The translations under genes and the position numbers were made by a program. DNA of 64,000 nucleotides from Escherichia coli (GTDB lineage Bacteria > Pseudomonadota > Gammaproteobacteria > Enterobacterales > Enterobacteriaceae). The stretch lies in the NCBI RefSeq assembly GCF_044324875.1, contig NZ_CP172185.1; one strand, given 5' to 3'. The notes under the pieces are model-generated. The model saw only the letters and a program-made list of their open reading frames with translations, was not told the DNA's origin and searched no databases. Positions 55,271 to 55,534 of the stretch are shown here, piece after piece (the stretch's first letter is position 1; each line of letters begins with the position of its first letter).

Positions 55271-55534
55271 ATGAAACCGAATATCCATCCTGAATACCGT
55301 ACTGTGGTGTTCCACGATACCAGTATCGATGAGTACTATAAAATTGGTTCGACCATCAAGACTGAACGTGTGATTGAGCTTGATGGTGTCACCTATCCGT
55401 ACGTAACTATTGACGTTTCCTCTAAGTCGCATCCTTTCTACACCGGCAAACTGAGAACTGTTGCTTCAGAAGGTAACGTGGCGCGCTTTAACCAGCGTTT
55501 CGGGCGTTTTGTTGACACCAAAAAAGGTGCCTGA
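55271..55534 (+). CDS. rpmE2: 50S ribosomal protein L31 type B (zinc-independent paralogue)
   Basis: [87 protein letters not shown], near-identical to recalled E. coli YkgM; no CxxC zinc motif. Confidence 0.85.

Follow-up and report, generated by a model that had tools for sequence, protein, structure and literature searches.

The described system closest to the gene analysed here is ykgM of Escherichia coli K-12, which, together with ykgO, is repressed by Zur and encodes the type B, zinc-free form of ribosomal protein L31 (YkgM, also termed bL31B or L31p). In the E. coli 70S ribosome bL31B is found at the bL31 position (PDB 6i7v). It is the prevailing form in stationary phase and when zinc is limiting, and it changes both processivity and frameshifting; the translational properties conferred by bL31A and bL31B differ, and in the laboratory constitutive bL31B was found to impair growth (PMC7363858). 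YkgM also represses the translation of rpmE via a hairpin in the rpmE leader, for which its residues K2, H6 and E8 are needed (PMC9825181). The principle of replacing a zinc-ribbon protein by a zinc-free one also applies to YtiA/RpmE2 of B. subtilis and to the alternative ribosomal proteins of mycobacteria (background in PMC7363858). These paralogues are chromosomal and controlled by Zur, whereas the gene analysed here is carried by a conjugative element and lacks a Zur operator.

The 64-kb stretch of E. coli DNA that we analysed (termed the window) carries an L31B gene on an ICE. It resembles ykgM in protein family and length, in a gap-free amino acid identity of 93%, in the lack of cysteines and in residues 1–18 of the product. 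However, it is found on an ICE rather than in the matA-ykgR locus, it comes without ykgO and without a Zur box, its nucleotide sequence is only 81% identical with nearly saturated synonymous sites, and its 5' and 3' flanks are different ones. In the literature we found no study that links ykgM with conjugative elements or addresses mobile copies; a genome comparison places a 'ykgM_2', without comment, on a genomic island of FDN-4 (PMC12054123).

A type B L31 gene beside conjugative transfer genes

The gene is located on the plus strand at positions 55271–55534 (264 nt, with the ATG at 55271 and a stop codon ending at 55534). It is an intact ORF of 87 codons plus stop, whose product is identical to RefSeq WP_000803993.1. 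It agrees with K-12 ykgM in 213 of 264 nucleotides and its product with YkgM in 81 of 87 residues. An earlier note on this DNA had described an 88-aa protein that is near-identical to YkgM and lacks the CxxC zinc ribbon. The likeness was confirmed, while the length has to be corrected to 87 residues. The product does not contain a single cysteine, so both CxxC pairs of the type A zinc ribbon are absent, in contrast to RpmE, which has them. Moreover, the product scores 121.6 bits against the NCBIfam model NF002462 'type B 50S ribosomal protein L31' (cutoff 86) and 68.9 bits against TIGR00105 (cutoff 38.35), and Pfam PF01197 is its precomputed domain match. Its residues 1–18, including K2, H6 and E8, are those of YkgM, and 64 of the 68 residues modelled in the bL31B chain of PDB 6i7v are the same. 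Judged from its sequence, it is near certain that the gene encodes a type B (C-minus) ribosomal protein L31.

From position 1432 to its end at 64000 the window is collinear (97–99.9% identity) with the chromosome of CM2, an E. coli strain isolated from chicken. The RefSeq annotation of CM2 lists, in this order, a tyrosine recombinase, ParA, a SPI-7-type DnaB, ParB, topoisomerase III and replication proteins of the STY4528/STY4534 type; then PilL, TraD, TIGR037xx 'integrating conjugative element' proteins, a conjugative ATPase and iha; and finally a TraU-like protein, TraG_N, a 190-aa predicted lipoprotein and L31B. The family-specific set of transfer and maintenance genes of SPI-7/pKLC102/PFGI-1-type ICEs is thus present, as found in the CM2 annotation and in Pfam matches of 10 assemblies. 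By this gene content it is near certain that the host element is an ICE of that type, and we take it to resemble ICEEc2 of the avian strain BEN374. The TraG_N gene (52400–53923) is followed by the gene for the 190-aa predicted lipoprotein (54475–55047, plus strand; lipobox LSAC in the translation), the last backbone-like gene past TraG_N. L31B comes directly past the transfer operon and on the same strand. Flanked by genes of a conjugative element, it is indeed carried in an accessory region, as had been proposed. WP_000803993.1 is recorded in thousands of assemblies, and its neighbours were alike in all of the 10 contexts listed.

A few other features of the element are of note. The iha gene for a siderophore receptor/adhesin (around 46620–48707) sits among the transfer genes. 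To the left of the integrase/ParA end, at about 1432–11000, there are leoA-type GTPase genes, which in the CM2 annotation are near sodC. An Rfam match to SorX at 59634–59705 is weak (25.2 bits, gathering score 46.6, E = 0.0095) and probably due to chance, and no tRNA genes were found in the window.

To see how far the association of L31B with such elements extends, we surveyed 80 loci of other Enterobacterales species that contain TraG_N relatives of 44–77% identity. None of them had L31 or L36 within 9 kb, while a homologue of the 190-aa gene follows TraG_N in 9 of these 80 related ICEs of other genera. We therefore rejected the possibility that L31B is a core gene of the ICE family; by its absence from the 80 related ICEs it is lineage-specific cargo.

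The 93% protein identity to YkgM might suggest an ordinary chromosomal ykgM locus that has lost its rpmJ2 (ykgO) and lies outside any mobile element, a scenario that had also been raised in the earlier note. This is virtually out of the question. The flanks of the gene are ICE genes and not matA, ykgL or ykgR, so the synteny with the chromosomal locus (from matA/ykgL to ykgR), for which a comparison had been suggested, is absent. Homology to the K-12 locus is restricted to the coding sequence, where nucleotide identity is only 81%, and the flanks are unrelated. Every carrier also has a separate, intact ykgM-ykgO. The ICE allele was found in 35 of 5426 complete E. coli genomes (97.7–100% nucleotide identity), of which about 24–25 are from poultry according to the host column. 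The native ykgM-ykgO is present in 5060 of the 5426 genomes, and all 35 carriers keep it intact elsewhere. A chimeric query gave the same picture: in each genome with the ICE allele the native portion of the query matched at one or more additional places, and pooling the genomes still gave 5060. Thus, the carriers have three bL31 genes, namely rpmE, ykgM and the ICE copy, and compensation for a lost native locus was rejected as an explanation.

In the remaining 366 of the 5426 complete genomes there was no megablast match to native ykgM-ykgO, and in several E. coli genomes IS1, IS3 or IS5 is inserted in or beside native ykgM. Some genomes, including GCA_027274645.1 and TUM1886, contain two copies of the ICE.

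Comparison of substitution rates indicates that the gene has a long history of its own. Between the ICE allele and K-12 ykgM, pS is 0.73, which is nearly saturated, and dN is 0.036 (ratio of about 0.014). The corresponding values for K-12 and Salmonella ykgM are 0.80 and 0.162. At silent sites the ICE allele and the Salmonella gene are therefore equally far removed from E. coli ykgM, and the ICE-encoded protein falls within a tight Escherichia-type cluster, with 93% identity as compared to at most 80% to other genera. Since the synonymous sites are nearly saturated, the gene was not recently picked up from host DNA. The idea that this part of the window is a chromosome-like segment captured by the element is not supported either, because only the coding sequence is homologous and pS to ykgM is 0.73. 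Finally, all six changes that distinguish the two types of ICE allele are synonymous. Taken together, the substitution pattern indicates an old mobile allele that has been under strong purifying selection.

A search in distant mode surfaced a sister allele, WP_000803992.1, which is the closest nucleotide relative of the ICE allele (84% identity, 7 amino acid differences; dS 1.09, dN 0.031, ratio 0.028). It is found in 589 of the 5426 complete genomes, in the tellurite/urease (ter/ure) island of O157:H7, O26, O103, O111 and O145 strains, an STEC island which presumably resembles SpLE1 or OI-43/48. An example is E. coli O157:H7 PV15-279, where it occupies positions 12000–12263 of the locus analysed (L098). 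The two alleles have I19, V34 and D82 in common, as well as a leader of about 50 nt with the same Shine-Dalgarno sequence, and both are solitary mobile copies without ykgO. The STEC-island allele differs from the ICE copy in that its start codon is GTG, its neighbours are a TraT remnant on one side and hok/gef on the other, it has two Zur-box-like sites upstream (17/20 each) and it is far more common. Its island is degenerate and non-conjugative. Together, the ICE allele (35 genomes) and the ter/ure allele (589) account for about 11.5% of complete E. coli genomes. Another 8 records at 90–95% and 5 at 80–90% identity are candidates for additional mobile L31B alleles.

Two other sources of the gene were rejected. 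PLSDB does not contain the ICE allele, its only matches being K-12-type ykgM on F-prime-like records, chromids and mislabelled chromosomes, and all phage matches are below 60% identity and mostly host-like fragments.

The position of the gene directly past the transfer operon and on the same strand would fit a protein that serves the element itself. L31B-containing ribosomes might favour the translation of ICE genes or aid the donor or recipient in the course of transfer, for instance in transfer-competent cells that resemble those of stationary phase, which would be in line with the prevalence of bL31B in stationary-phase ribosomes and its effects on frameshifting and processivity (PMC7363858). 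We regard such a role as improbable, since L31 is absent from all 80 related ICE loci, co-regulation has no direct support, and the sister allele resides in an island that can no longer conjugate.

The upstream region and the absent L36 partner

The 223 nt 5' of L31B (55048–55270, plus strand) were searched for signals that could drive or control its expression. For the Zur box we used two scoring schemes, with the upstream regions of K-12 and Salmonella ykgM as positive controls. Against the 23-nt proteobacterial consensus, the ICE upstream region reaches 11/23, which is at or below the background median, compared to 17/23 for K-12 and 16/23 for Salmonella. Against the structure-based E. coli box TGWNAYRWTATAWYRTNWCA (Gilston et al., 2014; PMC4219657), with 310-nt tiles as background, it reaches 14/20, the mode of the background, whereas K-12 and Salmonella score 19/20 and 18/20, respectively. 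Moreover, even with three mismatches allowed, the Zur core ATGTTATAWTATAACAT was not found in the entire window, and the best site 5' of the preceding 190-aa gene has an ordinary score of 15/20. The scans thus bear out the statement of the earlier note that there is no convincing Zur box upstream.

The same note had stated that no L36 paralogue follows the gene. This holds true for the entire window: the best hit of a tblastn search with K-12 YkgO against all 64 kb has an E-value of 0.41, which is noise. Nor did we find a remnant of ykgO downstream of the ICE L31B gene, and L36B/ykgO is also absent from the carrier loci that were inspected.

No sigma-70 promoter with a score of at least 9/12 was detected in the 223-nt region, the single candidate being a poor match of 8 points. 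Rfam did not reveal an RNA leader near L31B, and with a z-score of +1.3 the fold of the 5' leader is not unusually structured. Two other elements were identified. One is a weak terminator-like hairpin between the 190-aa gene and L31B (55092–55104). The other is the Shine-Dalgarno sequence AAGGGGGAG (55255–55263, plus strand), which lies 7 nt ahead of the ATG and is conserved in the STEC-island sister allele.

A restriction-modification cassette in the tail of the gene

Some integrative elements, such as islands in tRNA genes, enter the 3' end of a gene and bring along a replacement 3' end. A comparable architecture is found at L31B, which is interrupted at codon 67 by 3,395 bp of inserted DNA (55468–58862). 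The cassette proper (55589–58863, minus strand) is an R-M and CcdAB block. It encodes a DUF262/HNH type II restriction enzyme (55641–56813, minus strand; PADLOC REase_II, 287.8 bits) and an EcoRI-family methyltransferase (56829–57983, minus strand; PADLOC MTase_II, 319.5 bits), which as a pair of endonuclease and methyltransferase constitute a type II R-M system according to PADLOC, followed by CcdB (58212–58538, minus strand) and CcdA (about 58535–58783, minus strand). A GC-rich, terminator-like hairpin that belongs to the cassette, AAGGCGGTATTTACCGCCTT (55605–55624), separates L31B from the convergent restriction gene.

The block is bordered by two direct repeats on the plus strand. The left repeat (55468–55585) is a surrogate 3' end of L31B, consisting of codons 67–87 with the stop codon, followed by some 50 nt of 3' flanking sequence. 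The right repeat (58863–58980) is the displaced original 3' end together with the native downstream sequence. In the latter, codons 67–87 are found at 58864–58926 (3' end through 58929) and now contain R72C and R78C, while the surrogate end encodes exactly the same amino acids as the end it replaced. The repeats, of 108–118 nt, are imperfect, with 102 of 113 positions agreeing between left and right, and both junctions have the 9-nt core AGAAGGTAA in common. The cassette junction predicted for a circular form contains CCTTCCGTTAGAAGGTAAC.

Cassette-free sites corroborate the insertion. The block is missing from most ICE copies, and empty sites are seen in L002, L007–L009 and L099. The last of these, a 2.3-kb contig (GCA_902848785.1), is a cassette-free site of the same ICE lineage, which matches the left flank in 516 of 517 and the right flank in 1032 of 1037 positions. 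It also matches the right repeat (116/117) much better than the left one (102/112 only), which defines 55468–58862 as the inserted DNA. Thus, the view that the defence cassette has L31B as its target is upheld by cassette-free copies, including one from the same lineage, and by flanking repeats of the gene's 3' end. As the origin of the repeats in the window, a simple target-site duplication was rejected: of the 112 positions compared, the left repeat departs from the empty site of its own lineage at 10, while the right repeat agrees with that site at 116 of 117.

Like the islands in tRNA genes, the cassette brings the last 21 codons and downstream sequence, so that the target gene is left intact and its old end displaced as a direct repeat. 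Unlike them, it has no integrase, its 108–118-nt repeats are imperfect, and elsewhere it occurs without such repeats. No recombinase was found among the cassette genes, which encode only the restriction enzyme, the methyltransferase, CcdB and CcdA. The cassette proper is present with the same ends in other islands (L003 and L004), there without these repeats, and L016, a different ICE backbone, has two repeats of the recipient type. Insertion could have occurred by a Campbell-type single crossover through about 110 nt of homology, by a recombinase acting in trans, or by homologous transfer from one ICE lineage to another with subsequent gene conversion. Where a genome has two ICE copies, as in GCA_027274645.1 (L010 and L011) and TUM1886, one with and one without the cassette, there is an opportunity for recombination between them.

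Some further features of the region were observed. A 305-aa protein with integrase domains (Integrase_1, Phage_int_SAM_2) is encoded at 61922–62839, about 3 kb past the cassette, in every ICE copy seen; its neighbour on the minus strand is a zinc-finger/DUF3268 protein. We can only speculate that the integrase-like protein takes part in inserting the cassette. A perfect array of 17 copies of the heptamer TGCTTGT (58034–58152) separates ccdB from the methyltransferase gene. The number of copies varies, the array in CM2 being 42 nt shorter and those in L003 and L004 having fewer copies, which suggests slipped-strand variation that could alter the expression of the R-M genes. Finally, in L099 (722–1147) the L31B gene has R72C and, near its end, a 1-nt deletion in an A-run, which results in a predicted frameshifted product of 141 aa. 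The deletion may be a real defect that the surrogate end of the cassette mends, or an assembly error.

The significance of the locus might be structural in the first place, with the conserved 3' end of the gene being the place where accessory cassettes land and the protein of lesser importance. The R-M/CcdAB cassette is indeed found at codon 67 in two ICE backbones, with a surrogate 3' end, and empty sites exist. However, a single type of cassette was seen at the site, it lacks a recombinase and is found elsewhere without these repeats, and the strong selection on the protein would be left unexplained. We therefore consider it very improbable that the landing site is what matters most.

A second alternative is that L31B is a functionless passenger, a silent or barely expressed remnant which persists through the recent spread of the ICE. 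It would account for the lack of a recognisable promoter or Zur box, the absence of the gene from the 80 related ICEs of other genera and the possibly frameshifted copy in L099. Several results speak against it: a dN/dS of 0.014–0.028 over a near-saturated synonymous divergence, six synonymous but no non-synonymous changes between ICE lineages, a strong Shine-Dalgarno sequence that is kept in the sister allele, and an insertion that preserved both the reading frame and the exact amino acid sequence. On balance, we think it rather unlikely that the gene is without function.

A possible role of the mobile L31B

The explanation we favour, with moderate confidence, is that the gene encodes a functional, mobile, zinc-free bL31B, which provides a zinc-independent supply of the protein and is carried as cargo by an ICE of mainly poultry-associated E. 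coli. L31B would be made regardless of zinc, perhaps through read-through from the lipoprotein gene or from an unrecognised promoter. By analogy to YkgM, it would occupy the bL31 site at the central protuberance/subunit bridge. It may also repress the translation of the host's zinc-binding rpmE, because residues 1–18, including K2, H6 and E8, match those of YkgM. As a consequence, the ribosomes would shift to the zinc-free form and the zinc demand of the cell would fall, a plausible advantage in zinc-restricted host tissue. That the ICE copy confers a benefit under zinc limitation is plausible, and whether it has a physiological effect at all is about evenly poised.

Some observations weigh against the favoured explanation. 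There is no sigma-70-like promoter in the 223 nt, so expression is putative, and the weak terminator-like hairpin separates the upstream gene from L31B. Moreover, ykgMO already constitutes a zinc-sparing switch, to which an added benefit is not obvious, and constitutive bL31B costs growth (PMC7363858). Finally, the 1-nt deletion in L099, if real, means that L31B can be dispensed with there.

Both the protein family and its zinc-sparing logic are already known, the gene is annotated in RefSeq, and no known principle is changed. What sets this gene apart is the architecture: it is solitary, mobile and free of a Zur box, and it serves as an insertion point, its end having been rebuilt by the incoming cassette. 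The insertion illustrates clearly how a defence module can enter a gene while reconstructing its 3' end. Furthermore, published studies of ykgM mutants in O157:H7-type strains may have missed a second copy.

bL31B is the best-studied swap of a ribosomal protein under zinc starvation and at the same time represses the translation of its zinc-binding counterpart. A conjugative copy without a zinc-sensing operator would be a natural test of a bypassed switch. We tentatively suggest that mobile islands of pathogenic E. coli have a bL31B of their own, that at least the ICE copy is no longer under the control of Zur, and that this copy, if expressed, might override the Zur-L31p-L31 switch, swap out bL31A and repress rpmE regardless of zinc. 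If this were true, it would mean that a mobile element reprograms the ribosome composition and the zinc economy of its host.
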